From contig JACIWL010000003.1 in assembly GCA_014360995.1 (NCBI GenBank), positions 22,127-86,126 on the forward strand: a stretch of 64,000 bases of DNA, read 5' to 3'. The stretch is from Candidatus Bipolaricaulota bacterium. Its GTDB lineage: Bacteria > Bipolaricaulota > Bipolaricaulia > Bipolaricaulales > Bipolaricaulaceae. Of this stretch, positions 3,898-48,879 are shown one piece after another (within the stretch, counting starts at the first letter, position 1; each line of letters begins with the position of its first letter). A program made the position numbers and the translations under genes. Below the pieces are notes generated by a model. The model saw nothing but the letters and a program-made list of their open reading frames with translations. It ran no database searches and was not told where the DNA came from.

Positions 3898-3937
3898 CCA
3901 GTAATGGTGCTTCGCGATCACGGTTACCCATGGAGCC
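3898..3937. mobile_element. Solo remnant of an IS terminal segment (copy 1 of the block also found at 10349-10388)
   Basis: ccagtaatggtgcttcgcgatcacggttacccatggagcc closely resembles ccggtaacggtgcctcacaattacggttacccatggagcc, which sits next to the IS256-family pseudogene. Confidence 0.45.
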
Positions 3938-4507: not shown

Positions 4508-4633
4508 GCTTGCTTATACCTCAATATCCCTTTAGAATATTCGAATGTTGTACCTTGTGGGAAGGAGGTGATTTACGGGCAAATAGTTTTTAGCCAGACA
4601 TAAAAAGTAAAGCAGACAAGGGAGGTGAAGCTG

Positions 4634-6133: not shown

Positions 6134-6191
6134 ATGGAGACGGGCCCCGCCTCGGATGGGTGGGGCCCTTTCTTTTTTACCCTAATAGGAA

Positions 6192-7112: not shown

Positions 7113-7114
7113 CC

Positions 7115-7951: not shown

Positions 7952-7963
7952 AAGGAGGTTTGA

Positions 7964-9103: not shown

Positions 9104-9135
9104 AAGCGTAAACCCGTGGTTTTTTACTCCTTGAC

Positions 9136-10849: not shown

Positions 10850-10923
10850 TGGGAGATCGGCTAATGGTAGGCCGGCGGGCTCTGGACCCGCTAGTGGGGG
10901 TTCGAATCCCTCTCTCCCAGCCA
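10850..10923 (+). tRNA. tRNA-Gln (anticodon CUG)
   Basis: Manual fold: acceptor TGGGAGA/TCTCCCA with U1-A72; D arm GGCT-AATGGTA-GGCC; anticodon arm GCGGG-CTCTGGA-CCCGC; T arm GGGGG-TTCGAAT-CCCTC; encoded CCA. Resembles E. coli tRNA-Gln (UGGGG...CCCCAGCCA). Confidence 0.85.
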
Positions 10924-26298: not shown

Positions 26299-29200
26299 AT
26301 GATCGAGTACGTCCGCAAACGGGATGGAAGCCTTGTGCCCTATGAGCGCGGCCGCATCGTAGCCGCCATCCTTTCCGCTTTGCAGGAGGTGGGCCGGGAT
26401 GACGCCGCCCTAGCCCAGGAGCTGGCCCTGCGGGTGGAGCGGATCCTGGAGGGCCGGTTTGGCCCCCTCTTCGGCCCACCCCACGTGGAGGAGATCCAAG
26501 ATGCCGTAGAGGAAGTGCTCATGACCTCGGGGATTCCCGAGGCCGCGCGGGCGTACATCGTCTACCGCGAACAGCACAAAAAGATGCGGGAAGTCCAAGA
26601 ACTGGTGGATCCTGCCCTTGTCGAGAGTTACCTCAACGGACAGGACTGGCGGGTGCGGGAAAACTCGAACATGGCCTTTTCCCTTCAGGGCCTGAACGTG
26701 TTTCTTACGGAGAAAATCATTAGCCGCTATTGGCTTTTCCAAGTTTATCCACGGCCGATCCGCGAGGCCCACGAATCCGGGGACTTCCACATCCACGACC
26801 TTGGCACGTTGGGACCTTATACCTACTACGGCAAGGAAGTGGTGGTGGCTAAACACGCCGGTCAGCTGAAGCTTTGTTCGTTTGAGCAGCTTTATGCGGA
26901 CGTCCCCGGGGAAGAAATCCTCCTCAATGAGGCCGATGGGGCGTACGCCAAGTTCCCCAAAGACTTGTATGTGCTGGACAAAGACGGCTGGACGCGGGTG
27001 GTGCGGCTCGTGCGGAAGGCCAAGCACCGCCCCATGCGGTTCATCAAGAACCGCGGCGGTCGCAGCGTCATCGTAACCGATAACCACCCTATGATCGTGG
27101 AAACAGGAATAAAGGAGGCCCTCGAAGTCAGGGAAGACGACCGAACTTTTACGGTGAGCTGGGCGCGCCTGCTGGCCGAGGAAGGCCTTTTCTCCCAGGA
27201 GGCCATCGACCTGGCAGAAGAGATTCGCCAAAAGGGGTTCTCTGGCCCGCCGGTGTACCTCGATGGGGTGCCCCTTGAGGAGGCAAGCGACGGAGAACTT
27301 CTTCATACCGCTACCTTCTCCATCCCCCGGTTCATCAAATTGACGGAGGATTTTGGTTACTTTGTAGGCTTAGTTTTGGCCGAAGAGCGTTTAACCTATG
27401 ACGAAAAAAGCCCGAGGGTCATTTCCATCACTAGTCAAAGCCGAGAGCTACTTTTGCGGGCCAACCGCGGCCTTTTGGATAATCAGCTTTCCGGGTGTCT
27501 GAGGCCAAAGGAGGATGGTCGCTGGGAACTGCGGGTGACCAATCCGTTTCTCCTGTTTCTGTTTGAGAGGGTGTTTGAAATCCGCCCCGGATCCCGCCAC
27601 AAAACCCTGCCCGTTGGGGTCCTCAACTATAGTCGGGACTTTGTAAAAGGGCTCGTCGCTGGGTTGCTTGACGGGGACGGGACGATGGAGAGCTGCGATA
27701 CCCGCCTTTGCCTTAAAATGGCCGCCCGAACCCTCCTTGAGCAGTTGGCCGTAGTATTAGAGCTTTTGGGGTTTGTCCCCCGCGATCGCGCTATAGAGGG
27801 ACAAGGAAGTCGCCGATGGGCCTTGGGACGGGAGATCGTTCAGAAATACCCGCTATATGGCCTCTCCGTCAGCAAGACAAGAGTGGAACTTCCCGAGGAG
27901 AAATACCAGGTTGCGGCGGTGGCCACTAGGGCCTGGCATGACGTCGACCATGACCAATGGCACCGAGTGATCAACAACGACCCCGTGGACATCCCCGATG
28001 AATTCATCTACGACATCACTACTGAGTCCGGGACGTTGGTCGTGAACGGAATGTGGAACCATAACTGTGTAGGATGGGATCTCGCTGACCTCCTCATGGT
28101 GGGTTTCCGGGGGGCTCGGGGCAAGATCGAATCCCGGCCACCCAAACACTTCCGCACCGCCCTCCTTCAGGCGGTGAACTTCCTTTACACCCTGCAAGGG
28201 GAGGCTGCCGGAGCCCAGGCTTTCTCCAACGTCGACACCCTTTTTGCCCCCTTCATCGCCGCAGACGGCCTTTCCTACAAAGAGGTGAAACAAGCCCTTC
28301 AGGAATTCATCTATAACTTGAACGTTCCCACCCGGGTTGGCTTTCAAACTCCCTTCACCAACGTGACCCTGGATCTCCGGCCGCCAGAGCATTTGGCGAA
28401 GCTTCCGGCCATTGTGGGCGGGGAGCCCCTTCGGGCCCAGTACGGGGAATTTGAGCGGGAGATGAAGATGTTCAACCGGGCCTTCGCCGAGATCATGGCC
28501 GAAGGGGATGCCAAGGGCCGCGTCTTCACCTTCCCCATCCCCACTTATAACGTGACCCGGGACTTCCCCTGGGATGACCCGGATCTCTCCCCCATTTGGG
28601 AGATGACCGCGCGCTACGGCATCCCTTATTTTGCGAACTTCATCAATTCCGACATGCGGCCAGAGGACACGCGGAGCATGTGCTGCCGGCTGCGCCTGGA
28701 CTTGCGGGAGCTCCGCTACCGCGGGGGCGGGCTTTTCGGCTCAAACCCCCTCACTGGGTCCATCGGTGTGGTGACCTTGAACCTCCCCCGCCTTGCCTAC
28801 CTTTCCCGCAACGAGCGCGAGTTCTTCGAGCGGCTGGACGATCTTCTTCAGCTTGCCGGAAAATCCTTGATTATCAAAAGGAAATTCTTGGAACGCCTCA
28901 CCGAGCAGGGTCTTTACCCCTACTCCAAGTTCTACCTGCGCTCGATAAAGGAGCTCACCGGGGAGTACTGGAAGAATCACTTCTCCACCATCGGGGTGAT
29001 CGGCCTAAATGAGGCCTGTTTGAATCTCCTTGGGTGCAACATTGCCGACCCTGAGGGCATTGCCTTCGCCACCCGAGTTCTCGATCATCTGCGGGAGAAA
29101 CTCGTGGCCTTTCAGGAGGCCACCGGGCATCTATGGAATTTGGAAGCCACACCGGCGGAGGGCGCTAGCTATCGTCTGGCCATGCTCGATAAAAAACGTT

Positions 29201-29673
29201 TCCCGAAGATCATCGTGGCCAACGAGCGGGAGGTGGCGGAGCGCGGGGCCGCTCCCTATTACACCAACTCTTCGCATCTTCCTGTGAACTACACGGACGA
29301 CCTTTTCCTGGCTTTGCGGCTTCAGGAGCCCCTCCAGACCCGGTATACCGGCGGGACGGTCTTTCACGTGTGGCTTGGGGAGAGGATTCCTTCGCCAGAG
29401 GCAGCCAAAACCTTGGTGCGCCGCATTTTTGAACGCTTTCGCATCCCCTACCTCACCCTGACCCCCACCTTCTCCGTGTGCCCAAACCACGGGTATCTGG
29501 TGGGAGCACTCGAGGCCTGCCCCCTCTGTGGCGAGCGGACGGAGGTTTATTCGCGCGTGGTGGGGTATCTCCGGCCTGTGGAGCAGTGGAACGCTGGAAA
29601 ACAGGAGGAGTTCAAGGACCGCGTCTCCTTCGCCTCAAGCGCGGCCATCCTACCCAGCTCGCTTAAAATCTAG
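26299..29673 (+). CDS. nrdD: anaerobic ribonucleoside-triphosphate reductase (class III), intein-containing
   Basis: N-terminal ATP-cone (VRKRDGSLVPYERGRI). C-terminal Zn ribbon CPNHG...CPLCG and glycyl-radical motif SRVVGYLRP. The body is interrupted by a 415-codon intein. Confidence 0.92.
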   Translation: MIEYVRKRDGSLVPYERGRIVAAILSALQEVGRDDAALAQELALRVERILEGRFGPLFGPPHVEEIQDAVEEVLMTSGIPEAARAYIVYREQHKKMREVQELVDPALVESYLNGQDWRVRENSNMAFSLQGLNVFLTEKIISRYWLFQVYPRPIREAHESGDFHIHDLGTLGPYTYYGKEVVVAKHAGQLKLCSFEQLYADVPGEEILLNEADGAYAKFPKDLYVLDKDGWTRVVRLVRKAKHRPMRFIKNRGGRSVIVTDNHPMIVETGIKEALEVREDDRTFTVSWARLLAEEGLFSQEAIDLAEEIRQKGFSGPPVYLDGVPLEEASDGELLHTATFSIPRFIKLTEDFGYFVGLVLAEERLTYDEKSPRVISITSQSRELLLRANRGLLDNQLSGCLRPKEDGRWELRVTNPFLLFLFERVFEIRPGSRHKTLPVGVLNYSRDFVKGLVAGLLDGDGTMESCDTRLCLKMAARTLLEQLAVVLELLGFVPRDRAIEGQGSRRWALGREIVQKYPLYGLSVSKTRVELPEEKYQVAAVATRAWHDVDHDQWHRVINNDPVDIPDEFIYDITTESGTLVVNGMWNHNCVGWDLADLLMVGFRGARGKIESRPPKHFRTALLQAVNFLYTLQGEAAGAQAFSNVDTLFAPFIAADGLSYKEVKQALQEFIYNLNVPTRVGFQTPFTNVTLDLRPPEHLAKLPAIVGGEPLRAQYGEFEREMKMFNRAFAEIMAEGDAKGRVFTFPIPTYNVTRDFPWDDPDLSPIWEMTARYGIPYFANFINSDMRPEDTRSMCCRLRLDLRELRYRGGGLFGSNPLTGSIGVVTLNLPRLAYLSRNEREFFERLDDLLQLAGKSLIIKRKFLERLTEQGLYPYSKFYLRSIKELTGEYWKNHFSTIGVIGLNEACLNLLGCNIADPEGIAFATRVLDHLREKLVAFQEATGHLWNLEATPAEGASYRLAMLDKKRFPKIIVANEREVAERGAAPYYTNSSHLPVNYTDDLFLALRLQEPLQTRYTGGTVFHVWLGERIPSPEAAKTLVRRIFERFRIPYLTLTPTFSVCPNHGYLVGALEACPLCGERTEVYSRVVGYLRPVEQWNAGKQEEFKDRVSFASSAAILPSSLKI
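26821..28065 (+). other. Intein with LAGLIDADG homing-endonuclease domain inside nrdD
   Basis: The N-extein ends at ...HIHDLGTLGPY and the C-extein resumes at CVGWDL. Block A-like TYYGKEVVV...G; block B VIVTDNHP; LAGLIDADG motifs FGYFVGLVLAEE and FVKGLVAGLLDGDG; blocks F/G IYDITTESGTLVVNGMWNHN followed by +1 Cys. Confidence 0.8.
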
Positions 29674-31639: not shown

Positions 31640-31925
31640 ATGGTCAAAGATCCACAGCCCAAAGCGGCCTGGTTGGTTCGGGCAGGGCGCTTTGGCGAGG
31701 ATGAGGAGCTGGCGTTAGAGGAGGGGCTGGCCACCATCGGGTTCAGGAGTGTGCCCGACCTCAAAAGCTTTCCCCCCGCGAGGCCCTGGTGGACTACTTG
31801 CTTCGATCTGACCTCGAGGGTTCTCCATACCGGGCCTCTAACCTTGCCGCACAGTTGTGGGCCTTTCGGGAAGAGGTGCATGTGGGCGACATCGCCTCTT
31901 TGGGGTCGGGTCTTTAGTTTTTGTG
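31640..31925 (+). pseudogene. N-terminal fragment of a restriction-endonuclease-like (Mrr-type N-domain) gene, frameshifted and truncated
   Basis: ATG after AAGGGAGGAGG. MVKDPQPKAAWLVRAGRFGEDEELALEEGLATIGF...DL. The frame is lost in a C6 run at 31772-31777. The shifted frame continues REALVDYLL...AAQLWAFREEVHVGDIA and runs into the terminal repeat at 31895. Confidence 0.45.
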
Positions 31926-32107: not shown

Positions 32108-32530
32108 CTAGACATCTACGACACCCTGGGCGATCCAGGTCCCGTCCCGCTCCTCCACCTGGACCCAGTTGTAGGTGGCAGCCTTAACATCAATACCCCG
32201 CCCGTGCTTTGCTGGATCGAACCTCTCCCCAAACGCCTCGCCCATGGCCCGGTACCGTTCCTTTTCCTTCGTTATCCGTAAAGAAAAGCGGCCAAAAAGA
32301 AGGCCCTTTGTGTCGCGCAGAAAAAGAAGCTCCGCCAAAAAGCGCACAAATAAATCCTCGAGGGATTCCGCTTCCACCTCGAAGGGCACCGCTTCCTTGG
32401 GCTCGATTCTCTCAAGATCGGCCATGAGGGAGAACATGGCCCGCGCCGCCTCGCAAAACGCCTCCTCCACCGTGCTCCCGATCCCGCGCACGCCCATGTC
32501 TGAAGGATGGGGAATAAGTTCGTAGGCCAT
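32108..32530 (-). CDS. archease
   Basis: 140 aa. MAYELIPHPSDMGVRGIGSTVEEAF..A and C-terminal KAATYN...V match the archease family. Confidence 0.9.
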   Translation of the reverse strand: MAYELIPHPSDMGVRGIGSTVEEAFCEAARAMFSLMADLERIEPKEAVPFEVEAESLEDLFVRFLAELLFLRDTKGLLFGRFSLRITKEKERYRAMGEAFGERFDPAKHGRGIDVKAATYNWVQVEERDGTWIAQGVVDV

Positions 32531-32531
32531 C

Positions 32532-33080
32532 CTATCCTCCGAACCTCCAAGAAGCGACGGGCGTATATTTTGCTCCTTCTGGCCGAAGCTCGGAGCGCAT
32601 TAACGTTAGCCTTTCCACCAAAATCTCTGGGACGGCCAAAGATTCCTTTGGCAAAATAGGCCGCAAGTCCTTGGGCGTTTTGAACCGGGCCAGGGTCACA
32701 TGGGGCAAAGGCTCCTTCTTCTCCGGGGGAAAGCCTAGAGCCTGCACGGCCTCCTCCACCTGCTGACAGAGTTTTCGGAACTCGGCAGACTCGGCCCTGG
32801 AGCCGGCCCAAAAGACCCGGGCGGCCTTAGGTTGGGGGAACCCTCCCAAAACTTCGAGGGCAAGCACAAAAGGCTTTGCTTCTTGAGCCACCTTTTTCCC
32901 CACTTCCAAAAGTTGGGAAAGCTTCTCCTCAGGCACTTCCCCGAGAAAGCGCACGGTCAGGTGGTAGTTCTCCGGCGGCACCCAGGACCCATCTCCCAAA
33001 GAGACGCGAAAGCGCTTAGCCACCTGGGCCAGGGCCTCCTGCACATCCTCCGCAAGCTCTATGCAAAAGAAAAGGCGCAC
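32532..33080 (-). CDS. thpR: RNA 2',3'-cyclic phosphodiesterase (2H phosphoesterase, LigT/ThpR)
   Basis: 182 aa. MRLFFCIEL plus two H.T/S motifs (HLTVRFLG and HVTLARF). Confidence 0.85.
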   Translation of the reverse strand: MRLFFCIELAEDVQEALAQVAKRFRVSLGDGSWVPPENYHLTVRFLGEVPEEKLSQLLEVGKKVAQEAKPFVLALEVLGGFPQPKAARVFWAGSRAESAEFRKLCQQVEEAVQALGFPPEKKEPLPHVTLARFKTPKDLRPILPKESLAVPEILVERLTLMRSELRPEGAKYTPVASWRFGG

Positions 33081-33118
33081 GGTGCAATTATAAGGCCTGC
33101 TACACTAGGCTTTGGGCC

Positions 33119-34225
33119 ATGGCTGAGGAGTTAACCCTGCGCGGGCCGGTAATCCACGATTTTCCCTATCCGCCGGAAAGGCGGAAGTGCCCGCATCGGG
33201 CCCTGGTCTCTTTGACACCGGCGGGAAGCTGCCTTCACCTTTGCCCCATGTGCTACGCCCGGGCCTACCCCTGGAGCCGCGACGCCCCTGCCCTCTACAT
33301 CAACACCGCGGAAAAACTCGCAAAAGAACTGGAAAAGGTGGAAATCTGCCCGCCCCTTTATATCAGCCAGATCACCGATCCCCTCCAGCCTTTGCCGGAA
33401 GTGCGGAAGCTCACCGCTCGAGTGGTGGAGGTGGCCATCCGCTTCGGGGTTCCGTTTCACATCATCACGAAAAGCGGGGATGGAGTCCTTTGGCTTTTGC
33501 GCCGCATCCCCGCGCTTTGTGAATATCCGCGCTGGTGGCTTTCCATGACCATCGAGGCCCCTCCAGAAAAGCAAAAGATCACAAGCCCCGGAGCTTCGCC
33601 CGTGGAAGAGAGGCTTCGGGCTGTGGAGAAGTGTGCGAAGGAGGGGATCTTCGTGGTCGTGCGCACCGATCCCGCGATCTTTGGCCTCGTTCACGAAGAG
33701 GATGAGCTTTGGATCCTCGACCACGCCCGGGATGCGGGGGCAAGCCACATCATCTCCGCCATGGGGCACTTCAACCGCGTTTCTTTTGCGAGGCTTCTTG
33801 AGGCCCTGCGCGCCGCTGGCTTCAACCGGGAGGCGGCGGAGGTGCAAAGGAACTACAAGCCCGGAAGAGCCGAGGGCTTCTTCCAAAGCGCGGCCACGAT
33901 AAGGGCGCCCTTTTCCTTGCGTCAAAAATTCCATCGTTTCATGCGGAACGAAGCGGAAAAGCGGGGCATGACCTATGCCGCTTGCCTAGAGATGGGGCGG
34001 GAATGGGATTCCCCTGGGATCCCCCACTGTGAGGCCGCTCCGCAAGGGAGGCTAGCGAAAAAGACTTCTTCCGGAAAATTCGAGCTTCTTCCCGATTGCT
34101 ATGCCGATTGCCTTCGCCATTGTCCGAATCCTGCTTCTCCTCCTTGTGGGCGGCCTGAGCTCCTCCGCCAATTTCCCTACAAATTCGCGACTTTACTTCC
34201 CCGGCCCTCCCCGCTTTTGGCCTGA
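33119..34225 (+). CDS. radical SAM protein (SplB/COG1533-like), function unknown
   Basis: CLHLCPMCY gives a C-x3-C-x2-C cluster near the N-terminus, followed by a TIM-barrel-like body. The Cys-rich tail (CYADCLRHCPNPASPPC) suggests an auxiliary metal site. Confidence 0.8.
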   Translation: MAEELTLRGPVIHDFPYPPERRKCPHRALVSLTPAGSCLHLCPMCYARAYPWSRDAPALYINTAEKLAKELEKVEICPPLYISQITDPLQPLPEVRKLTARVVEVAIRFGVPFHIITKSGDGVLWLLRRIPALCEYPRWWLSMTIEAPPEKQKITSPGASPVEERLRAVEKCAKEGIFVVVRTDPAIFGLVHEEDELWILDHARDAGASHIISAMGHFNRVSFARLLEALRAAGFNREAAEVQRNYKPGRAEGFFQSAATIRAPFSLRQKFHRFMRNEAEKRGMTYAACLEMGREWDSPGIPHCEAAPQGRLAKKTSSGKFELLPDCYADCLRHCPNPASPPCGRPELLRQFPYKFATLLPRPSPLLA

Positions 34226-34304
34226 TCCCGAGAAAGCCTGAAACCCTTGCTAAGAAACTGGGTCGGGTAAAATCCCAAGGAAACGAGCGAGGAGGTGGAC
34301 GGCG

Positions 34305-35765
34305 ATGTCCCAGGCCTGGCGTGGCCCTTTGGAGAGGATCGACGAATTTCGCTGGCGGATACCGCGCACCTATAAAAAAGAGATGCGTACCGACGGCATC
34401 ATCTACGCCTCGGAGAAGATGATCCCCACCATTTGCGAGGATCAGGCGCCTGAGCAGGTGGCCAACGTGGCCTGCCTTCCGGGGATCGTGGGCTATTCCA
34501 TGGCCATGCCCGACATCCACTTCGGTTACGGCTTTCCCATCGGCGGGGTGGCCGCCTTCGATGTGAAAGAGGGGGTGGTATCCCCGGGCGGGGTAGGCTA
34601 CGACATCAACTGCGGAGTGCGCCTCATCCGCACGAACCTCACGGTGGAGGACGTAAAGCCCCGCCTTCCTGCCCTTTTGGACGCGATCTTCGCCAACGTC
34701 CCCTGCGGGGTGGGGATGGGAGGGAAGATCAAGGTCACCGCCGAGGAGCTTCGGCAAGTGATGGTGAAGGGAGCGCGCTGGGCGGTGGAGCGGGGCTATG
34801 GCTGGCCGGAGGACCTTGAGCATTGTGAGGAAGGAGGAGCGTTAGCCGGCGCCGATCCTGCGGCTGTTTCCAGCCGGGCTGTGGAGCGCGGCCGACCTCA
34901 GCTGGGAAGCCTCGGGGCGGGCAATCACTTCCTCGAGATCCAGGTGGTGGAGGAGATCTATGATCCCGCCGCGGCGGCCAAAATGGGGGTCACCGCAAAG
35001 GGCCAGGTCACGGTGATGGTCCACACCGGCTCCCGCGGCTTTGGCCACCAGATCTGCGACGACTACCTTCAGGTCATGCAGAACGCCGTGCGCAAGTACG
35101 GGATAAACCTGCCTGACCGGCAATTGGTGTGTGCTCCCGTGGAGTCCCCGGAAGGGAAGAGGTATTTTGCGGCCATGGCCTGCGCCGCCAACTACGCCTG
35201 GGCCAACCGCCAGATGATCACCCACTGGGTGCGGGAGGCCTTTGAGCAGGTGTTCAAAAAGAGCGCCAAAGAGCTTGGGCTTTTCGTCATCTACGATGTG
35301 GCCCACAACATTGCCAAGATCGAGGAGCACGAGGTGGACGGCCAAAAAGTAAAAGTGTGCGTGCACCGGAAAGGGGCGACGCGGGCCTTCCCCCCTGGGC
35401 ACCCGGCCGTGCCCAAGGACTATCGGGAGATTGGCCAACCTGTCCTCGTTCCCGGGGATATGGGCACCCTTTCCTATATCCTCGTGGGCACAGAGCGGGC
35501 CATGAAGGAGACCTTCGGCTCCACCTGTCATGGCGCCGGCCGGCTCATGAGCCGGGCCGCGGCGTTGCGCCAAAAAAGCGGGCGAGAAGTGGCCGAGGAG
35601 CTTCGGGAAAAAGGGATCCTTGTGCGGGCCGCAAGCGATAAAACCCTCGTGGAGGAGATGCCCGAGGCCTATAAAGACGTGACGGAGGTGGTGGAGGCCT
35701 GCCACGGCGCGGGGATCTCCCGCATGGTGGTGCGGGTGCGGCCGATCGGCGTGGTGAAGGGCTAG
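34305..35765 (+). CDS. rtcB: RNA-splicing ligase RtcB (3'-phosphate/5'-hydroxyl ligase)
   Basis: 486 aa. PDIHFGYGFPIGGV, GYDINCGVRL, GSRGFGHQ and STCHGAGR motifs. Confidence 0.93.
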   Translation: MSQAWRGPLERIDEFRWRIPRTYKKEMRTDGIIYASEKMIPTICEDQAPEQVANVACLPGIVGYSMAMPDIHFGYGFPIGGVAAFDVKEGVVSPGGVGYDINCGVRLIRTNLTVEDVKPRLPALLDAIFANVPCGVGMGGKIKVTAEELRQVMVKGARWAVERGYGWPEDLEHCEEGGALAGADPAAVSSRAVERGRPQLGSLGAGNHFLEIQVVEEIYDPAAAAKMGVTAKGQVTVMVHTGSRGFGHQICDDYLQVMQNAVRKYGINLPDRQLVCAPVESPEGKRYFAAMACAANYAWANRQMITHWVREAFEQVFKKSAKELGLFVIYDVAHNIAKIEEHEVDGQKVKVCVHRKGATRAFPPGHPAVPKDYREIGQPVLVPGDMGTLSYILVGTERAMKETFGSTCHGAGRLMSRAAALRQKSGREVAEELREKGILVRAASDKTLVEEMPEAYKDVTEVVEACHGAGISRMVVRVRPIGVVKG

Positions 35766-35823
35766 CCCCTTTTGGTGAAAAAAAGCAAGGGAAGGGGTAT
35801 GATGCCCAGGGCGAGGAGGAAGG

Positions 35824-38133
35824 ATGCCCAAGGAACAGGTTCCCGAAGTAAAGCTTAAGGTGGCCGAGGCCCTGCAGCAGGACGTGGGCCGGGGCATTGC
35901 CCGCATTGCCGGGCAGTATCTCGAGCAAATTGGCGTCTCCCCAGGGGAGCCGGTGGAGATCGAGGGGCAAAGGCTCACCGGAGCCGTAGCGGCCCTGGCT
36001 TACCAAGCTGACGCCGGGCTCGACATCGTCCGCATCGATGGCCTCATCCGCACCAACGCCGGGGTGAGCGTGGGGGACACGGTCATCGTGCGGAAGGCCA
36101 AGTGGAAGCCCGCCAACCACGTGACCCTCGCTCCGGCAAGGCGGGGGCTTCGGCTCATCCTCCCTCCCGAGAGCCTGCGGGCCGTTCTTGTGGGGCGGGT
36201 AGTGCGCGCCGGCGATGTCGTCTCCACCGCGGGAAGGGCGGAGCGGGCGCCCTTCGGCGGGGAACTCCTCACCGACCGAATCTTCCGGGACTTCTTCGAG
36301 ATGATGGCCCCGATTTCCTTCGGGTTTGGGGAGCTCCTCCTCAAAGTGGTGAGCACCCAGCCCGCGGGGATCGTGCGCATCACCCCCGAAACCCAAATCG
36401 AGCTCCTCCCGGAGTACGTGGAGGTGGCCGAGCGGGGAAGGGAGGTTCCCGAGGTGACCTACGAGGACATCGGGGGGCTGCGGGACGTGATCCAGAAGAT
36501 CCGGGAGATGGTGGAGCTCCCCCTCAAAAAGCCCGAGCTTTTCGCGCGGCTTGGGATCGAGCCTCCTCGGGGGGTCCTCCTTTACGGCCCGCCGGGCACA
36601 GGGAAAACCCTCCTCGCCAAGGCCGTGGCCCACGAGACCGATGCCCACTTCATCGCCATCTCCGGCCCGGAGATCATGTCCCGCTACTACGGGGAAAGCG
36701 AGCAAAGGCTTAGGGAGATCTTCGAAGAGGCCCAGAAGAACGCGCCCTCCATCATCTTCATCGACGAGCTTGACTCCATCGCCCCAAGGAGGAGCGAGGT
36801 CACTGGAGAGGTGGAGAGGCGGGTGGTGGCCCAGCTCCTTACCCTCATGGATGGGCTCAAAGAGAGGCGGAACGTGATCGTGATTGGGGCCACAAACCGC
36901 ATTGAGGCCATTGATCCGGCCCTGCGCCGCCCGGGAAGGTTCGATCGGGAGATCGAGGTGCGCGTCCCCGACCGGGAGGGCCGCAAAGAGATCCTCATGA
37001 TCCACACCCGGGGGATGCCCCTTGCCCCCGATGTGAATTTGGACGAGCTCGCTACGGTAACCCATGGGTTTGTGGGGAGTGACCTTGCTGCTCTTGCTCG
37101 GGAGGCGGCGATGAACGCCCTGCGCCGCGTCCTGCCCAAGATAAACCTCGACGAAAAAGAGATCCCCAAGGAGATCCTGGACGAGCTTGTGGTGCGCAGG
37201 GAGGACTTCGAGGCCGCCCTCAAAGAAGTCCGGCCCTCGGCCATGCGGGAGATCATGATCGAGATCCCCACCGTCACCTGGGACGATATCGGTGGGCTAG
37301 AGGAGGTAAAGCAGCTTTTGCGGGAGGCGGTGGAGCTTCCGTTGGTGAACCCCGAGGCCTTTCGGAGGCTGGGGATCCGCGCGCCCAAGGGGATCCTCCT
37401 TTATGGGCCGCCGGGGACGGGGAAGACCCTTTTGGCCAAGGCCGTGGCCAACGAGTCGCAGGCCAACTTCATCACCGCCAAGGGCTCGGATCTCCTTTCC
37501 AAGTGGTACGGGGAAAGCGAGCAAAGGATCGCCGAGGTCTTCCGACGGGCGCGGCAGGTGGCCCCGGCCGTGATCTTCCTGGACGAGCTCGACGCCTTGG
37601 CCCCTCGGCGGGGCACGGCCATCGGAGAGCCCCACGTCACCGAGCGCATCGTGAACCAGATGCTCGCCGAGCTCGACGGCCTCGAAGAGCTGCGGGGGGT
37701 GGTGGTGATCGGGGCCACCAACCGGCCGGACATTATCGATCCCGCCCTCCTTCGGCCGGGCCGCTTCGACGAGCTCATCTATGTTCCCCTTCCCGACGAA
37801 AAAGCGCGGCTGGCCATCTTTAAGGTCCACACGAAGGGGATGTCCCTCGCCCCCGATGTGGACTTGGTGGAGCTGGCGCGCCGCACCGAGGGCTACAGCG
37901 GCGCGGACATCGCCGAGGTCTGCCGGAAGGCCGGCCGCCTCGCCCTCCGGGAGGACCCCAAAGCCGAGGCCGTGTCCATGCGCCACTTCCTGGAGGCCTT
38001 GGAGAAGACCCCGCCCTCCGTCTCCCCAGAGGAGCGGGCCAGGTACGACAAACTCAGCAAGAACCTGCGCCGGGCCGTGCGCCGTCTGGCCGGCTTCATG
38101 GTGGAGGAAGAAGAAACCAAGGAGGAAAAGTGA
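35824..38133 (+). CDS. Cdc48/VAT-like double-ring AAA+ ATPase
   Basis: 769 aa. N-domain of Cdc48 type (GRGIARI...[22 protein letters not shown]). Two AAA modules, each with GPPGTGKT and IIFIDELD / VIFLDELD. The C-terminus ends in EEEETKEEK. Confidence 0.9.
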
Positions 38134-38819
38134 AAAAGTTTCTCGCGGTTTTGGCCCTTGTCGGGCTTGCCCTTGCCGGACTAGCCCAAACCCCGGTGGC
38201 CGTGGTCAACGGCCAGCCCATCACCAAAGAGGAACTGGACAGCGTCACCAGGCTCAACGAGATCCTTTTTATGTTGTATTACCAATACCCGCGCTTCGCC
38301 CAGTCCCTTCTTGTAACTCCGGAGGGAAAAGCCTTCCTTACGCGCTACCAGCGCGATGTCCTTGAGGATCTCATCCTCCACAAGATCCAACTTCAAGAGG
38401 CCCAATCCCGCGGGATCGCCGCCGATCCCGCCCAGGTGGAGGAACTCGTGAACCAAACCATCGAGCGCATCAAGATTTACTATGGCTTAAGTGATGAAGA
38501 GCTTGTAGCTGAGCTTGCCAAGGAAGGGCTCACCTTGGAAGAGTTCCGTGCTGAACTCAGGCCCCAGGCGGAGGAACAGGTCCTGATCGAAGCCTTGAAA
38601 ACGGCGGTAACCCCCGACGTCACCGTAAGCGAGGAGGAAATCGTCGCCTATTATCAACAGAACCCCGGCCAATTTGTGGATGCCCAGGGGAAGACTCTTC
38701 CGCTTGAGGAAGTGCGGGAGAAAATCGCGTCTGTGCTTATTTCGCAAAAGAAAGAGGAGGCCTGGCAGAACTGGCTTAAGGGGGCGCGCGAGGCCGCTAG
38801 CGTGCAGATAAACTTGTAA
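38130..38819 (+). CDS. exported SurA N-terminal-domain-like chaperone protein
   Basis: Signal peptide [33 protein letters not shown] and following helices resemble SurA_N/PpiD-type domains. No parvulin domain is evident. GTG start overlaps the upstream stop (GTGA). Confidence 0.6.
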
Positions 38820-39505: not shown

Positions 39506-41608
39506 ATGCTAAATCTGCCTAATGAAAATGTGATTCCGGAGAGGATTCGGGGGATTGTAGAGCTTGCTCAAAATCTTTGGTGGACCTGGCATCCTTCGGC
39601 GCGGCGGCTCTTTCGGGCCCTGGACTACCAGGCTTGGCTAGAGACCACCCACAATCCCGTCCTCATGCTCCGGGTCATCCGACCCCAGCGCTTCCAGGAG
39701 CTCGCCAATGACCCGGAGTTCTTGGCCCTCTATGACCAAGTGATGGCGGAGTACCGGGCTGATTTATCCCGTCCTTCCCTGGACCTTCCCGGCCCGGTGG
39801 CCTATTTCTGCGCGGAGTTTGGGGTTCATGTTTCCTTGCCCATCTACGCCGGCGGGCTAGGGATCCTCGCCGGGGACACGCTCAAGGAAGCAAGCGATAT
39901 GGCCCTCCCCATGGTGGGGATAGGACTCATCTACACCCAGGGGTATGTAACCCAGCGCATTCGCGAGGACGGCTGGCCAGAGGAGGAGCAGAAGGCTTTG
40001 GACCCCAGTGCTCATCCCCTTGAGCCTGTGCGGGATTCCTCCGGCTCCCCCTTGCTTTTGGAGATCCCGGCGTTTCGGCCCAGCGTGCGAGCCCAGGTCT
40101 TTTTGGCCCGGGTGGGCCGGGTGCCCCTCTACCTCCTCACCACCGACGTGGAGGGGAACGCTCCCCAAGACCGGACCATCTCCCAAAGGCTTTACACCAC
40201 GGATTTAGAACAAAGGTTTAAGCAGGAATGGGTGCTGGGGGTGGGAGGGATGCGGGCCTTAGAGCGCTTAGGGATTCGCCCGGCCGTTCTCCACCTGAAC
40301 GAGGGCCACCCGGCCTTCGCCCTCCTCGAGCACCTCCGCCAATTTTTGGCCCAAGGCCTCTCCTTCGAGGAAGCTCTCCTTCGCACCCGTCAGACCACGG
40401 TGTTCACCACCCATACCCCGCTTCCCGTGGCGACGGATGTGTTCCCCTTTGCCCTCCTTGATCGCTATCTTGCCCCCTATTGCCAAGAGCACGGCCTTCC
40501 GTACGAGGCCATTTTGGAGCTTGGGAAGGATCCCAAGAATCCGGAGGCGGGGTTCAACATGACCATTTTCGCCCTGCGCCTTTCTCGGCACGTAAACGCC
40601 GTAAGCCGCCGTCACGGGGAGGTGGCCCGCCGCATTTGGGCCGGGATCCGCTTCCGGGACGAGGAAGTGAGGATTGAGGCTATCACCAATGGCGTACACC
40701 TCTTCACTTGGATCGAACCACTTAGGGTTCAGCGCCTTTTGGATAAATACTTGGGCAAAGATTGGCGGGAAAGGCCCGACGATCCGGAAGTTTGGCAAGG
40801 GGTGGAGAAGATCCCGGATGAGGAGCTTTGGGCTGTGCATCAGGAGAGAAAAGAGGCGTTAATCGCCGAGCTTGCGGCCAGGGCTCGCAGGCGCTGGCGG
40901 GAAGGGGCTCCGGCCAAAAGCGTTTTGGCCTTCGGAACACTTCTTGATCCCAACGCCCTCACCCTCGGATTTGCCCGCCGCTTTACTGCCTACAAACGGC
41001 CGGACCTCCTCCTTTATAACCTAGAAAGGCTGAAAAAACTCGTGACAGATCCATTCCGGCCAGTGCAAATCATCTTTGCCGGAAAGGCCCATCCGGCAGA
41101 CATTGAAGGAAAACGCCTGATCCAAAAAGTTTTTCAACTCGCTTGTGATCCGGCGTTCGCCGGAAGGATTGCATTCGTTGAGGAATACGACCAGCACCTG
41201 GCGCGGTTCCTAGTGGCCGGGGTGGATGTGTGGGTCAACACCCCTCTTCCGCCTTTGGAGGCCAGCGGGACGAGCGGGATGAAGGCCAGCGCCAACGGGG
41301 TGCCCCATCTTTCCGTCCTGGACGGGTGGTGGCTGGAGGGTTATACGGGCGAAAACGGCTGGGCTTTTGGGGGCGAGGAACATTCCGAGGGCCGGAATCA
41401 GGCGGACGCCGAGGCCCTCTATCGCCTGCTGGAGGATAAGATCGTCCCCCTTTATTACGAGCGCGGGCCGGATGGGGTGCCCCATGGCTTTGTGCGCGTT
41501 ATGAAAGAGGCGATAAGGACGGTGGCCCCGCGGTTCTGCACCCGCCGGATGCTTCGGGAATACCTGAAGAAGTTGTACATTCCGGCCGTAAGGGGGAAAG
41601 GGCCGTGA
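39506..41608 (+). CDS. glgP: alpha-glucan family phosphorylase (GT35)
   Basis: 700 aa. N-terminal LAQNLWWTWHP (DUF3417 type), GGLGILAGD, and EASGTSGMKA (PLP-lysine region). Confidence 0.88.
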   Translation: MLNLPNENVIPERIRGIVELAQNLWWTWHPSARRLFRALDYQAWLETTHNPVLMLRVIRPQRFQELANDPEFLALYDQVMAEYRADLSRPSLDLPGPVAYFCAEFGVHVSLPIYAGGLGILAGDTLKEASDMALPMVGIGLIYTQGYVTQRIREDGWPEEEQKALDPSAHPLEPVRDSSGSPLLLEIPAFRPSVRAQVFLARVGRVPLYLLTTDVEGNAPQDRTISQRLYTTDLEQRFKQEWVLGVGGMRALERLGIRPAVLHLNEGHPAFALLEHLRQFLAQGLSFEEALLRTRQTTVFTTHTPLPVATDVFPFALLDRYLAPYCQEHGLPYEAILELGKDPKNPEAGFNMTIFALRLSRHVNAVSRRHGEVARRIWAGIRFRDEEVRIEAITNGVHLFTWIEPLRVQRLLDKYLGKDWRERPDDPEVWQGVEKIPDEELWAVHQERKEALIAELAARARRRWREGAPAKSVLAFGTLLDPNALTLGFARRFTAYKRPDLLLYNLERLKKLVTDPFRPVQIIFAGKAHPADIEGKRLIQKVFQLACDPAFAGRIAFVEEYDQHLARFLVAGVDVWVNTPLPPLEASGTSGMKASANGVPHLSVLDGWWLEGYTGENGWAFGGEEHSEGRNQADAEALYRLLEDKIVPLYYERGPDGVPHGFVRVMKEAIRTVAPRFCTRRMLREYLKKLYIPAVRGKGP

Positions 41609-42474
41609 CCCTCATCCTTGTGGGACTTTTGGCCCTGGGCGCATCTTGTGCTGAGCCGGTCTTTCTCCGCCCCGTCCCTTGGCTTGGCGACCTTGTCATC
41701 GCCGAACAAAGCCTCGTCCTCGGAAGTACCGGTCAGGTTGTCGAGATGAGTTACCATGGCGAGATCCTCCGGGTTCTTCCCTTCCCCGCTGGTCAAATCC
41801 AAGCGTTGGCATTGGGCCCAGGTTTTCTTGCCGCAGGGGGCTGGAATCTCCTGCGCCTTTGGACTTGGCCCGCGGGAGAAATCCTTTTGGACATCCTAGG
41901 TTTTGGCACGATGATCAAAGACCTTGCTGTCGCTGATTCCCTTATCCTGGCCGCCGGAGCCGACGGCCGGGTCCTCGCCTTCTCCCTAAGCGGGGAGGTG
42001 CTCTGGAGCATGCGCGCCCATGAAGGGACCGTCTGGGGGATTGCCGCTACCTCTAAGTTATTTGCTACAGCCGGGAGCGATCGCGCCGCCCTTTGGGACT
42101 TGGAAAGCAAAAAGGAAGTTCACACCTTCCCAGGGAGGACCTGGGAGGTGGACTTTTCCCCGGATGGTTTCCTCCTTGCCGGGGGTGCGGGGAAGATCCT
42201 CAAATTGTGGGACACCGCGTTGGGGCTTTCCCTCCTTGAAATCTGGGCCCACGAAAGCTGCACGGTGGCGGTGGCTTTCTCCCCGGATGGAAGGAAAGTG
42301 GCCACGGGTTCCCTGGACCAAAGCGCGGCCCTTTGGGACGCGGAAAGCGGGCAATTGCTTGAGCGCATAACCGGGTTTCCCGCCATCGTTCGGGCCGTGG
42401 GCTTCAGCCCCGATGGCCGGCTCCTCGCCGCCGGCGCCGAGGACGGCACCATCGCCCTCCTCCGCCTTCCCTAA
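41605..42474 (+). CDS. WD40-repeat beta-propeller lipoprotein
   Basis: MTLILVGLLALGASC lipobox-like signal. Repeated ...FSPDG..LA.G..D....LWD... units. GTG overlaps the glgP stop (GTGA). Confidence 0.8.
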   Translation: MTLILVGLLALGASCAEPVFLRPVPWLGDLVIAEQSLVLGSTGQVVEMSYHGEILRVLPFPAGQIQALALGPGFLAAGGWNLLRLWTWPAGEILLDILGFGTMIKDLAVADSLILAAGADGRVLAFSLSGEVLWSMRAHEGTVWGIAATSKLFATAGSDRAALWDLESKKEVHTFPGRTWEVDFSPDGFLLAGGAGKILKLWDTALGLSLLEIWAHESCTVAVAFSPDGRKVATGSLDQSAALWDAESGQLLERITGFPAIVRAVGFSPDGRLLAAGAEDGTIALLRLP

Positions 42475-45589: not shown

Positions 45590-47248
45590 TTACCGAACGA
45601 TTAGGTGAAGAAGACAATAGTGTCCGCCGGGCCCAGCTACGGCCACCCGGTATTCCCCAGGCTCAAGCGACTTGGCATCGACCACGAGGCGCCAGCGTCC
45701 AAGGGCTTCTTGATATTCGAGGCGGAAGGCTTGAGCTAGCTTCGGATCGTCAGGCCACCAACGGACCCTCGACCTTTTATTCGGATCCGGGCAATAGCGC
45801 GTCATCACAAATTGACTTGTGTGGAATAAGAGGAAAGTCGGCCAGCTCGAGCTGTAAAGGATAGCACCTTCATTTGTACTTCTTGGGGTTGCCTTAAGAT
45901 CCTCAAATTTTGCGTCCTTCCCCACCACGATAAGGCCTGTATTGGTGTACCAGTTCTCCAGGGTGTCCGGAGCAAATAGGCTGATGCGCTCCATGGATTG
46001 GAACTCCGGGGAGCCTGCTACCCATCCCTTGGTAACCCGCGGATCAGCGTTGGCCGTGTCCACCACCTTACCGGTTGGATCGAGGAGTTCCAGCACTTCG
46101 CCCCGCGGGTCGAGGGCTAGGTCGTAGACAAGGTCCGCCGGGATACCCCGCACCACCTCATCGCGCCCGCGTTCGAGAAGGTAGGCGCTTGCCGCAGCAA
46201 CTAAACCCCGGAGTTCCACAACCTTCCACTCCCTCTCCGCGACAGTAGTGGCCTGAGTGAGACGCCAGCGCAGGATCCAACCCGTGAGGTCCACCGCGTT
46301 CTCCGTGACGTTCATGAGCTCGATCCACTGGTCGTCCGCGTTTGCTGCGGTCCCACCCCAGGCGATTTCGTTGATCACAATTGGGCCAGTATCGTCGTAG
46401 ATGAGGACAGCTGCGGTGTCGCTGACCACGTCGTCGGTGCGGCGCTTCATGAGGTAGAACCCGTGGGGGGCAATCGTCCCGCGGAGCTCCACGACCTTCA
46501 CGTACTGGTCGAGCACGCCCTCCGGCTGCTTGCGCCGCCAGCGGAGGGTCCACCCCGTGAGGTCCAGCAGCTCATCAAACGAGCGGTAGAGTTCAATCCA
46601 TTCGTGCATCGGATCGGCTTCCGTGCCGCCCCAGGCGACCTCGTTGATCACGATCCGCGGGCCGAGGGCGCCGCCTCCACCGGCGATCTCCTCCCCGCAG
46701 TCCACCACCATGATCTGGATCATTCCCAGGGCAAAAGCGCCCATGGGGTCCGTGACGATATACGTAATGCGGTCGGTGCCCAGGAAGTCAAACTGCGGGG
46801 TATACACCACGTCCACCGAAGCCTCGTGAGGGGCACGGTATGTAACCGCACTTAGGCTCCCGCTCAAAGCGCCGGAAGCAGGTGCTCCAAGGATTGCGAA
46901 CGTCAACGGATGTGAGTCCGGATCCGCTGGGTTCAGGTTGGCGTCATACCCCCGAAGGGAAAAGGCGAGGAGTGTGTTCCAGCATGTCACGAGGGGCAGG
47001 GCCTCTGCCGTGGGGGGCGCGTTGTTCCATACCCAGTCTTTCAGGGCATCGGGACCATTTGCGCTGCCGAGCCCTGTCTCCCGATGCAGGAGGGCCCCGC
47101 CGAGCGTGACGTCCGTAATCGCTCTGATCACGACCCTGCCCGGGGTAGCCGCGAACACGGTCAGAGAAGCTTTTCCACCGATGGTCGAGGGGCTCGATGC
47201 GGTTACCACCGTGGCTCCCGCCGTATTTTCAAGGAGCACGAATACCAC
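45590..47248 (-). CDS. Surface protein segment with Ig/cadherin-like domain and two lamin-tail domains (distal part of an interrupted frame)
   Basis: Two LTD units (IVINEVAWGGTEADPMHEWIELY...LDLTGWTLRWR and IVINEIAWGGTAANADDQWIELMN...VDLTGWILRWR) and one Ig-like unit (LTFAILGAPASGALSG...TYTPQFDFLGTDRITYIVTD). In the same frame as 47273-48514, 8 sense codons after its TGA. Confidence 0.7.
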   Translation of the reverse strand: MVFVLLENTAGATVVTASSPSTIGGKASLTVFAATPGRVVIRAITDVTLGGALLHRETGLGSANGPDALKDWVWNNAPPTAEALPLVTCWNTLLAFSLRGYDANLNPADPDSHPLTFAILGAPASGALSGSLSAVTYRAPHEASVDVVYTPQFDFLGTDRITYIVTDPMGAFALGMIQIMVVDCGEEIAGGGGALGPRIVINEVAWGGTEADPMHEWIELYRSFDELLDLTGWTLRWRRKQPEGVLDQYVKVVELRGTIAPHGFYLMKRRTDDVVSDTAAVLIYDDTGPIVINEIAWGGTAANADDQWIELMNVTENAVDLTGWILRWRLTQATTVAEREWKVVELRGLVAAASAYLLERGRDEVVRGIPADLVYDLALDPRGEVLELLDPTGKVVDTANADPRVTKGWVAGSPEFQSMERISLFAPDTLENWYTNTGLIVVGKDAKFEDLKATPRSTNEGAILYSSSWPTFLLFHTSQFVMTRYCPDPNKRSRVRWWPDDPKLAQAFRLEYQEALGRWRLVVDAKSLEPGEYRVAVAGPGGHYCLLHLIVR

Positions 47249-47272: not shown

Positions 47273-48514
47273 TCAGCCGGCCCCAGTGTTGGTCTCCACC
47301 TGCGCGGTTACTGTATGGTGCGTGCCCACCGGATTCACTGACACAAGAGGGGTAACACTGATCCGGGCGTCCGCATACATCTTCGTAGCCGGACCGCTTG
47401 AGTTGCCCATGCCGTTCGTGGTCCGCACGATCTGGGTGCCGCCTGCGAACGTCATCGTGACCGTGGCCGACGCCGTGAACACAGCTGGTGAGGGTTGGTT
47501 GATGGTGAGGTTCCAGGTAGCGCTCATCCCGTCCGCGGCCACCGTTGGTCCGCTCAGAACCTGGCTCCCTGGGGTCGGCGTCACGGTGTAGTTGAGAGTC
47601 CACGAACTCGGCGCCGCGCCCTCAGCGTACGCCGTGATCAGGAACGTGTGCGGGTTACCCACCGCGTTTGTCGCCTGCCCCGGGTTGATCATGATGTAGC
47701 CATCTACCCCTACGTAGTGGCTTGGATCGGTCGCTGTCACTGTCTGCCCGTCGTACGTCGTCGTTGCGGTCCCAACGTTCCCGTACTGCCCGGCCACGGC
47801 CGTCCCCGTTTTCGTCAGGGGCGCGCTCGCCCCGGGAGCAAGGCTTGGGATCGTCCCGATCGAACCCACCTGATCGTCCGTCACGACGATGTCTGTCAGC
47901 GTTACGTCCCCGGTGTTCGTCACCTTGTACGTCCACGTCACCGTGGACCCCGCGGGCACCGCTGGACCGGGCGGCATGTTTGCATCTACCCCGTTTGTCT
48001 TCTTCTCGAGCACAAGCCCTGGCTGGCCAGGCGAAGGACATGCCGGTCCCTCAACCTGATAAAAGCAGTTGCCTGGCCCTGCCTTCACCGCGGCTGTGGT
48101 GTAGCCGGTGGGCCAGTATCCGCGGAGCGTGATCCAGTACTCGCGGCATTGGGGCGTGTTGAATTCTTGGTCGAACTTCACGCCGAATAGATGTGTTGTG
48201 GGATCCGTGCCACACTCGTAGCTGTGACTTGCCGCCACGATGTCTGCGCACCCCGCGCACGTCGTGGGCAGGCCCAAAACCCAATGACTGATGGCCGGGT
48301 CGCCGTTCGAGCACACGCGGTACTGAAACGTAGTGTTCATCCCGTCAAACGTGGCCCCAAGGAACACCACGGCGTATTGAGAACAATTTTGGGCTGAGGC
48401 ATGAAACCAGGCTCCTGCGCCCAAGAGCAGGACGAGAAGGAGGGAAATAAACCCGGTTCTCGCCAGCCGCACCGGTAAGCGCGCTTCTTTGCCAATCCTG
48501 AACAAACTTGCCAT
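47273..48514 (-). CDS. Secreted DUF11/Ig-like repeat protein (proximal part of the interrupted frame)
   Basis: Signal peptide ...ISLLLVLLLGAGAWFHASAQ. Cys-rich N-domain. DUF11-type unit (LEKKTNG.DAN..PGP.V..GS.VTWTYKVTNTGDVTL..IVVTDD). Ig-like repeats with N.VG..HT. RBS AAGGGGGG before the ATG. Confidence 0.8.
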   Translation of the reverse strand: MASLFRIGKEARLPVRLARTGFISLLLVLLLGAGAWFHASAQNCSQYAVVFLGATFDGMNTTFQYRVCSNGDPAISHWVLGLPTTCAGCADIVAASHSYECGTDPTTHLFGVKFDQEFNTPQCREYWITLRGYWPTGYTTAAVKAGPGNCFYQVEGPACPSPGQPGLVLEKKTNGVDANMPPGPAVPAGSTVTWTYKVTNTGDVTLTDIVVTDDQVGSIGTIPSLAPGASAPLTKTGTAVAGQYGNVGTATTTYDGQTVTATDPSHYVGVDGYIMINPGQATNAVGNPHTFLITAYAEGAAPSSWTLNYTVTPTPGSQVLSGPTVAADGMSATWNLTINQPSPAVFTASATVTMTFAGGTQIVRTTNGMGNSSGPATKMYADARISVTPLVSVNPVGTHHTVTAQVETNTGAG

Positions 48515-48640: not shown

Positions 48641-48673
48641 AAAAATAAAAAGCTGCCAGGTTTCCCTGGCAGC
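48641..48673 (-). terminator. Rho-independent terminator downstream of the pyrH-nitroreductase transcription unit
   Basis: The minus strand reads GCTGCCAGG-GAAA-CCTGGCAGC followed by TTTTTATTTTT. Confidence 0.7.
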
Positions 48674-48879
48674 CCGACCGCCCGTTCTGGGCTCGTGGAT
48701 TTGCGTCCCTACATTCCTGTAGGTTTGCCCTTTTCAGGGAAGCAAAGCCATTGTATGCCGAAAATTCTCCCTGTCAAATGGACATTTGACCCAAGTTGAT
48801 AGATCGCAACCAGCCGGGAAAACTTCCGGATGCAGCCCAGCCTTCAGGAAACCCTACGTGGGGCCAAGGGAATGCGGTT

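Follow-up and report, generated by a model that had tools for sequence, protein, structure and literature searches.

An RtcB, archease and ThpR locus in Candidatus Bipolaricaulota is probably an array of separately promoted neighbours

Does an RNA ligase that sits between a radical S-adenosylmethionine (radical-SAM) enzyme and a protein unfoldase share a function with them, or only a place on the map? We address this question for positions 32108–38819 of a 64,000-nucleotide stretch of DNA from Candidatus Bipolaricaulota (also named Acetothermia), hereafter the window, in which rtcB lies among genes for archease, the 2H RNA 2',3'-cyclic phosphodiesterase ThpR, a radical-SAM protein (rSAM), a Cdc48-like ATPase and an exported SurA_N-like protein. 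Were the cluster a functional module, RNA ligation would be tied to radical-SAM chemistry and protein unfolding, a link new to biology; but genes that are closely packed in a compact genome need not, for that reason alone, share a function. Our literature searches retrieved no described association of RtcB, archease and a radical-SAM enzyme, with joint mention only in a review of tRNA modification (the RNA-repair survey of Burroughs and Aravind 2016 was not covered), and nothing on Bipolaricaulota together with RtcB. We find it probable that the region consists of four separately promoted units lying side by side in a compact genome, and that rSAM, rtcB and cdc48 are neighbours by coincidence. 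What we see is better explained by a rearrangement of the known archease–RtcB system, set among unrelated neighbours.

Linkage of the six genes across genomes

The initial annotation had described six genes in two divergent units 38 bp apart, and Pfam and NCBIfam profile searches of the window's open reading frames (ORFs) recovered all six with the domains as named. On the minus strand, thpR (32532–33080; TIGR02258 equivalog, 146 bits against a cut-off of 65.7) is the first and archease (32108–32530; PF01951, 139.7 bits, full length) the second gene of a bicistron. Across the 38-bp divergent spacer (33081–33118) lie, on the plus strand, the rSAM gene (33119–34225; PF04055, 38 bits against 29.5), a 79-bp spacer (34226–34304), rtcB (34305–35765; PF01139, 626 bits over profile positions 1–426 of 426), a 58-bp spacer (35766–35823), cdc48, which encodes a double-ring AAA+ ATPase of the CDC48/VAT family (35824–38133; TIGR01243, 1086 bits against 802.65), and the exported SurA_N-like gene (38130–38819; SurA_N and SurA_N_3 matches and a signal-peptide-like N terminus). 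The absence of RtcA and RtcR reported earlier holds for the window, as distinct from the whole genome: no RTC or Sigma54_activat domain occurs in its ORFs of at least 250 aa. Rfam gave no match across the region 32108–38819.

We then asked how far this linkage extends. A scan for rSAM, with one genome per species, gave 52 loci in which the window proteins were searched by tblastn; 44 of them lie outside Bipolaricaulota (WOR-3, Stahlbacteria, unclassified bacteria, Methanomicrobia/Halobacteriota, Bathyarchaeia and Woesearchaeota; rSAM identity 28–52%). A metagenome scan with an RtcB alignment gave 80 diverse loci (753 kb; RtcB 57–67% identical to the window RtcB), scored by iterated profile searches, and Cdc48 neighbourhoods came from seven more distant Bipolaricaulota loci (L140–L146, of which L140 is Ca. 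Bipolaricaulis sibiricus). The full archease–thpR–rSAM–rtcB–cdc48–surA_N layout occurs only in the window clade (L001–L008 and L134–L136; RtcB 88–96% identical), which accounts for eight to nine Bipolaricaulota loci among the 52 (rSAM identity 73–81%), and in these loci efp, glgP and a WD40 gene are syntenic as well. No rtcB, archease or cdc48 lies within 10 kb of rSAM in any of the 44 loci from other lineages, and thpR does so in one, 7 kb away (L011). Near rtcB, the 80 loci hold no rSAM orthologue and a single Cdc48-like gene (L067), and the seven distant Cdc48 loci lack the rSAM gene altogether. The initial annotation had proposed to score co-occurrence with rtcB across phyla; the joint rSAM–rtcB–cdc48 linkage is absent from the 44 rSAM, 80 RtcB and 7 distant Cdc48 loci, and the proposal of an undescribed RNA-repair or stress module containing both rSAM and Cdc48 is mostly unsupported, the linkage being confined to one narrow, syntenic Bipolaricaulota lineage.

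The distant loci show what may have preceded this arrangement. Five of the seven (L140, L141, L142, L145 and L146) carry a minus-strand thpR–archease–rtcB operon divergent from cdc48 or cdc48–surA_N, with divergent spacers of 68–75 bp in L140–L142, and four of these five are flanked by dnaE–cofD and/or glgB–glgP; L143 and L144 have cdc48 without the RNA genes. Within the window clade, L134–L136 (RtcB 88% identical) have dnaE–cofD as the upstream flank instead of nrdDG–trpS, and glgB is inserted after efp. The simplest history starts from a phylum layout of cofD, rtcB<-archease<-thpR and cdc48->surA_N. In the window sublineage the rtcB of this operon would have been lost, after which rSAM and an rtcB from a different subfamily came to stand on the plus strand, with thpR on one side and cdc48 on the other. 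One further locus (L133; JGI Ga0453288_0082, 6598–8000) has an RtcB identical to that of L134–L136 and keeps rtcB–cdc48, without cofD, archease and thpR.

Several observations on these loci stand apart. In L133 the enolase, rSAM and cdc48 genes are split, probably by frameshifts from error-prone sequencing, and the deletion may be real strain variation. In L140 and L145 the operon runs on into a gene for a 309-aa protein (3530–4459 and 2551–3480, both on the minus strand) that is 39–40% identical to the window WD40 protein, followed by a UbiE/GidB-like methyltransferase gene; the window WD40 gene itself (41605–42474, plus strand) overlaps the end of glgP, 6 kb from rtcB. Two candidates were rejected. 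The Cdc48-like gene of L067 encodes a 631-aa AAA protein two opposite-strand genes away from archease–rtcB, and does not qualify as an operon partner; a 344-aa gene upstream of cdc48 in L144, considered as a possible rSAM, had no similarity when tested.

A different RtcB

The RtcB sequences fit such a replacement. The window RtcB is 57–71% identical to RtcBs from other phyla and 49–52% identical to the operonic RtcBs of L140–L142, L145 and L146, which are 73–79% identical among themselves and 44–53% identical to the window RtcB and all other RtcBs sampled. Judged by these identities, the window rtcB belongs to the mainstream archaeal-type subfamily and is not orthologous to the operonic Bipolaricaulota rtcB. 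C103, H208, H240, H334 and H409 are invariant in 19 aligned RtcBs including the window protein, and we take their roles to be catalytic (metal- or GMP-binding), by analogy with the Pyrococcus horikoshii enzyme. The closest outgroup RtcBs have other, unrelated surroundings: one at 83% identity is flanked by dciA and a major facilitator superfamily transporter gene, and one at 71% by ppdK, greA and lysS.

Promoters and junctions

To find conserved control elements we aligned the three intergenic spacers across nine relatives. The thpR–rSAM spacer varies from 31 to 1011 bp, and its only conserved elements are two back-to-back –10-like hexamers with a putative promoter role: ATTATA (TATAAT on the minus strand; 33087–33092), which also occurs in L140–L142 with their ancestral layout, and the plus-strand TACACT (33101–33106; TACACT or TAAACT in relatives), about 12 nt before the rSAM ATG. 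Because the former lies only 6 nt before the thpR GTG, a leaderless thpR transcript is implied. Upstream of rtcB, a putative promoter GGTAAAAT (34266–34273, plus strand) and a putative Shine–Dalgarno sequence GAGGAGGTG (34289–34297, plus strand) are kept in all nine relatives as GGGTAAAAT followed by GGAGGTGA, in spacers of 44–839 bp. The putative cdc48 promoter GGTATGAT (35796–35803, plus strand), a sigma-70-like match, is followed by a GAGGAGG Shine–Dalgarno sequence (whole element 35796–35823); relatives have GGGTAAGAT or GGGTATGAT, in the general form GGGTA(A/T)GAT then GAGGAGG, and an equivalent TACCAT box precedes cdc48 in L140–L142 and L144, where cdc48 starts the divergent unit. The motif G[GT]TAnn[AC]T occurs six times in 70-nt zones upstream of window genes, against 0.87 expected.

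Each of the junctions is broken by an insertion in some close relative. In L007 about 1 kb, including a run of N, separates thpR from rSAM; in L004, 839 bp separates rSAM from rtcB, and 2.2 kb with an intact Mrr-like restriction gene separates rtcB from cdc48. The rtcB box and Shine–Dalgarno sequence persist after the first L004 insertion and the cdc48 box is retained downstream of the second, and since the conserved boxes survive both, rSAM, rtcB and cdc48 each appear to have a promoter of their own. The tight couplings are limited to thpR–archease, where the genes are 1 nt apart, and cdc48–surA_N. A –10-like box conserved in front of each of rSAM, rtcB and cdc48 speaks against the single apparent transcription unit of the initial annotation, although some read-through is possible.

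The inserted segments of L004 and L007 have no Rfam match, and the 839-bp L004 insertion (11108–11946) holds no convincing ORF. The intact Mrr-like gene of L004 (13653–14675; Mrr_cat, 77.7 bits) has a counterpart in the window, where the 680-bp gap between trpS and archease contains a frameshifted remnant of the N terminus of an Mrr-like restriction endonuclease (31649–31902, plus strand; about 87 of 340 aa, 62–64% identity). The gene appears to move around the locus, because the remnant lies upstream in the window and the intact copy lies between rtcB and cdc48 in L004. Many window genes have a TAnnAT-like –10 box 6–12 nt before the start and no Shine–Dalgarno sequence (upstream of 17519(–), 51582(+), 3831(–), 12407(–) and 33080(–)), a pattern which suggests that leaderless mRNAs are frequent in this organism. 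Unlike these leaderless-type genes, rtcB and cdc48 have leaders with strong GGAGG sites.

ThpR, archease and a probable ancestral operon

Archease is a regular partner of RtcB, as the initial annotation had said: it is the gene immediately before rtcB, in the same orientation, at 47 of the 80 diverse RtcB loci and in the operons of the five other Bipolaricaulota. In the window this same-strand adjacency is missing, as archease and rtcB are read in opposite directions and thpR and rSAM occupy the 1.8 kb that separates them. ThpR has both HxT motifs (H40-L-T in HLTV and H127-V-T in HVTL), and thpR is the first gene of the operon in all five Bipolaricaulota loci; an eight-sequence ThpR profile at E ≤ 1 found it near none of the 80 rtcB genes. 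The association of archease with rtcB is known as a 'tRNA splicing operon' (Desai et al. 2014, PMC3973293). The thpR–archease–rtcB operon is conserved phylum-wide and is a variant of this known operon; it is the modestly new point of our analysis.

The presence of thpR is the more curious part of this arrangement. Escherichia coli ThpR opens the 2',3'-cyclic phosphate of RNA (RNA>p) so that a 2'-phosphate terminus is left, and RtcB does not act on such a terminus (Remus et al. 2014, PMC4201822). As characterized, ThpR is therefore no upstream step for RtcB, because the product of the E. coli enzyme is unusable by it. The shared chemistry of ThpR and RtcB that had been proposed accordingly extends to a common substrate, RNA>p, and not to successive steps. 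The conserved operon, the most interesting residue of the finding, joins two enzymes whose characterized activities compete for one RNA end, and it makes the unsettled physiological role of ThpR testable.

Cdc48 as a neighbour of the RNA genes

Cdc48 is a persistent neighbour of the ThpR–archease–RtcB operon, divergently transcribed in the ancestral layout, and this raises the alternative that the two are functionally coupled across Bipolaricaulota, for instance in RNA and protein stress recovery or in ribosome rescue. Such coupling would act by co-regulation through a shared divergent control region and would have been tightened in the window lineage, where rtcB is directly upstream of cdc48. 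The adjacency is found in five of the seven distant loci (at the 68–75 bp of L140–L142) and in all window-clade loci, and it outlived the rearrangement that moved and replaced rtcB. However, the same loci keep dnaE–cofD on one side and glgB–glgP on the other, so that the adjacency of cdc48 is no more specific than general synteny. Further exceptions point the same way: two of the seven distant loci (L143 and L144) have cdc48 without RNA genes, L133 has rtcB–cdc48 without archease and thpR, L004 tolerates its 2.2-kb insertion with a restriction-enzyme gene between the two, and the one Cdc48-like gene near an RtcB locus elsewhere among the 80 belongs to a different operon. In addition, cdc48 overlaps the surA_N-like gene by 4 bp and is translationally coupled to it, and since this partner is exported, operon membership here does not track function. 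We therefore regard a functional coupling of Cdc48 with the RNA genes as unlikely.

The protein itself has the N–D1–D2 architecture (CDC48_N, CDC48_2, two AAA and two AAA_lid_3 domains) and is 70–83% identical across Bipolaricaulota and 65–69% identical to archaeal Cdc48. The archaeal protein docks on the 20S proteasome by a C-terminal HbYX motif; the window protein ends in ...EEEETKEEK, without an HbYX-type tail, and the window has no proteasome genes. The cdc48–surA_N pair recurs in L140, L141, L144 and L145. SurA proper combines a chaperone domain with a parvulin peptidyl-prolyl isomerase, whereas the 229-aa window protein has only SurA_N-type domains above cut-off; its Rotamase_2 match spans 53 residues and, at 26.3 bits, falls just short of the cut-off of 27.

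The radical-SAM protein and its relatives

The rSAM protein is a spore photoproduct lyase (SPL)-like radical-SAM enzyme outside named families, with no assigned substrate. It carries the cluster motif C38-x3-C42-x2-C45 (CxxxCxxC) and an N-terminal motif HD(FPY)...R-C-H (HDFPY...RKCPH in the window), both invariant in an alignment of 30 homologues, and its Cys-rich C-terminal region contributes to a set of further conserved cysteines (C24, C289, C304, C327, C331 and C343), of which the C289–C343 set is likewise invariant. We call it SPL-like because SPL is its best fold match, and place it outside named families because its NCBIfam scores are far below the cut-offs for PA0069 (51 bits against 360) and Rv2578c (23 against 430); no SplB model was matched in the same search. 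Its AlphaFold (AF2) model has a predicted local distance difference test score of 93, and the best matches in the Protein Data Bank (PDB) are the SPL structures 4FHC, 4FHG and 4K9R, all weak (template modelling score, TM, 0.49–0.60; root-mean-square deviation 4.4–4.9 Å; 15–16% identity); a PDB sequence search with the rSAM profile gave spurious matches only. The family is rare, with 72 clusters at 90% identity and 47 representative clusters at E ≤ 1e-30 among 1.84 billion proteins. Its neighbours elsewhere are of another kind: a family 4 glycosyltransferase (GT4), an NAD-dependent sugar epimerase, a PIG-L deacetylase and a hexapeptide acetyltransferase in archaeal loci (L029–L050), and, in three WOR-3 loci (L009, L011 and L017), a histone deacetylase-type deacetylase on one side and a GT4 glycosyltransferase on the other. 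This context hints at a sugar or glycan substrate rather than RNA repair, a pointer that is only modest because the archaeal loci come from closely related genomes.

These features bear on a second alternative, in which rSAM is a true partner of the window RtcB and the two entered as one cassette. The SPL-like enzyme would then act ahead of ligation or once it is complete, to repair or modify a nucleic-acid lesion, for instance a cross-link that UV or radicals have caused in tRNA or rRNA. A single event is indeed the most parsimonious account of why rSAM and a non-orthologous rtcB share one point of insertion, flanked by thpR and cdc48; a DNA-repair enzyme is the closest structural match; and in one RtcB locus (L076) a distant paralogue of COG1533 type follows uvrC, 2.6 kb downstream of rtcB. 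Nevertheless, rtcB is beside none of the 44 rSAM orthologues from other lineages and no rSAM orthologue is beside any of the 80 RtcBs, rSAM is likewise missing next to the nearest outgroup RtcB (83% identity), and the window-clade rtcB, with its own conserved –10 box and ribosome-binding site, lies 839 bp from rSAM in L004. The sugar and glycan genes that surround the family across domains, and a fold match at TM ~0.55 and 15–16% identity with SPL-related thresholds out of reach, also argue against a partnership, which we hold to be very improbable.

The L076 gene was rejected as an instance of rSAM beside rtcB: it is a distant PA0069-like paralogue that follows uvrC and a haloacid dehalogenase-type phosphatase gene, and it owes its high score to a self-built profile.

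Other features of the window

Downstream of the locus lies efp on the minus strand, and upstream lie nrdD, nrdG and trpS; the remaining window genes are mixed housekeeping genes with short spacers. NrdD, the anaerobic ribonucleotide reductase (26299–29673, plus strand; 1124 aa), is followed by the gene for its activase NrdG and contains an intein, since the NRDD match is split by an insert of about 400 aa with a LAGLIDADG-like domain. A c-di-GMP-I-GGC riboswitch (48664–48738, minus strand; 59.5 bits, just over the gathering threshold of 59) precedes genes for a DUF7507 protein and a lamin-tail/Big_9 protein (47273–48514 and 45590–47248). The only tRNA gene, tRNA-Gln(CTG) (10850–10923, plus strand), is near a truncated Mutator-family transposase gene (9159–9959, minus strand; profile positions 125–301 of 379). 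Positions 4001–10000 have a G+C content of 0.53 against about 0.60 elsewhere in the window, and this 4–10-kb stretch may be of foreign origin.

Discussion

The initial annotation had itself named fortuitous packing as the alternative to a module, and this is the reading we favour: for rSAM and Cdc48 we largely found what it had said would count against a module, namely linkage of narrow range and apparently separate promoters. On this account thpR–archease would be a closely spaced bicistron, probably without a leader, that is left over from the phylum-wide thpR–archease–rtcB operon for RNA end processing and ligation. An rtcB of the mainstream subfamily would have displaced the ancestral operonic gene and would now be read from the opposite strand, with its own promoter and ribosome-binding site, while the cdc48–surA_N pair would keep its ancestral promoter. 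RtcB and archease would seal RNA 3'-phosphate or >p ends to 5'-hydroxyl ends, as is established for these families; ThpR, in a role that we infer here, would take these >p ends or else cyclic nucleotides as its substrates; Cdc48 would unfold proteins independently of RNA repair; and the function of rSAM is most likely unrelated to RtcB. The rSAM–rtcB–cdc48 order would then stem from a recent local rearrangement in one sublineage and be maintained by ordinary synteny, not by shared function.

Several points weigh against this account. There is no convincing intrinsic terminator between rSAM, rtcB and cdc48 (the hairpin that follows rtcB, with a z-score of –1.5, lacks a U tract), so read-through co-transcription of the plus-strand genes is possible, and we infer the promoters from conservation alone. 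The neighbourhood samples (52 rSAM, 80 RtcB and 7 Cdc48 loci) are small, and the archaeal rSAM loci, closely related among themselves, amount to few independent observations. That a replacement rtcB landed beside thpR–archease suggests selection for proximity to both, since an insertion at random would be unlikely to put it there. The rSAM gene came to lie in the same place, and cdc48 adjoins the RNA genes in the ancestral layout as well as in the derived one, over 73–97% Cdc48 identity.

A broader version of the module idea strikes us as having very little going for it: an undescribed, conserved Bipolaricaulota thpR–archease–rtcB operon, in some cases continued by genes for a WD40-like protein and a methyltransferase, would lie beside cdc48 with ThpR aiding RtcB (for example by making 3'-phosphate ends, by opening 2',5' links or by removing cyclic nucleotides), and the window lineage would have rebuilt it with a different RtcB and a nucleic-acid-directed SPL-like rSAM into a recovery locus for RNA lesions and protein stress.

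How does this locus compare with known systems? Like the E. coli rtcBA operon and its sigma-54 activator RtcR, it encodes an RtcB of the kind that seals RNA >p or 3'-phosphate ends to 5'-hydroxyl ends, but archease takes the place of RtcA and RtcR among the window ORFs, and the window RtcB, of 486 aa, is of the mainstream archaeal type, its best NCBIfam match being NF038162 (intein-containing RtcB), below cut-off. The archease–rtcB operon (PMC3973293) has the same two families, both full length here; it differs in that the window separates them onto opposite strands around thpR and rSAM, and in that the Bipolaricaulota version starts with thpR, an order unseen in the 80 RtcB loci elsewhere. 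The window ThpR is an equivalog-level match to ThpR/LigT (PMC4201822) with both HxT motifs, yet E. coli ThpR is not operonic with RtcB, whereas the Bipolaricaulota gene heads the archease–rtcB operon. With SPL and the COG1533 superfamily (PA0069 and Rv2578c), the window rSAM shares a radical-SAM core with CxxxCxxC; SPL is its best, if weak, fold match, and its profile matches to PA0069 and Rv2578c are weak. It is set apart by scores far below their cut-offs, its own HDFPY...RKCPH motif and Cys-rich C terminus, the rarity of its family, and a context that is glycan-related where conserved. Finally, the window Cdc48 resembles archaeal Cdc48/VAT and actinobacterial Cpa in its N–D1–D2 organization, its score above the CDC48 subfamily cut-off and its 65–69% identity to the archaeal proteins, but it is a bacterial protein without an HbYX-like tail and is coupled to an exported SurA_N-like gene.

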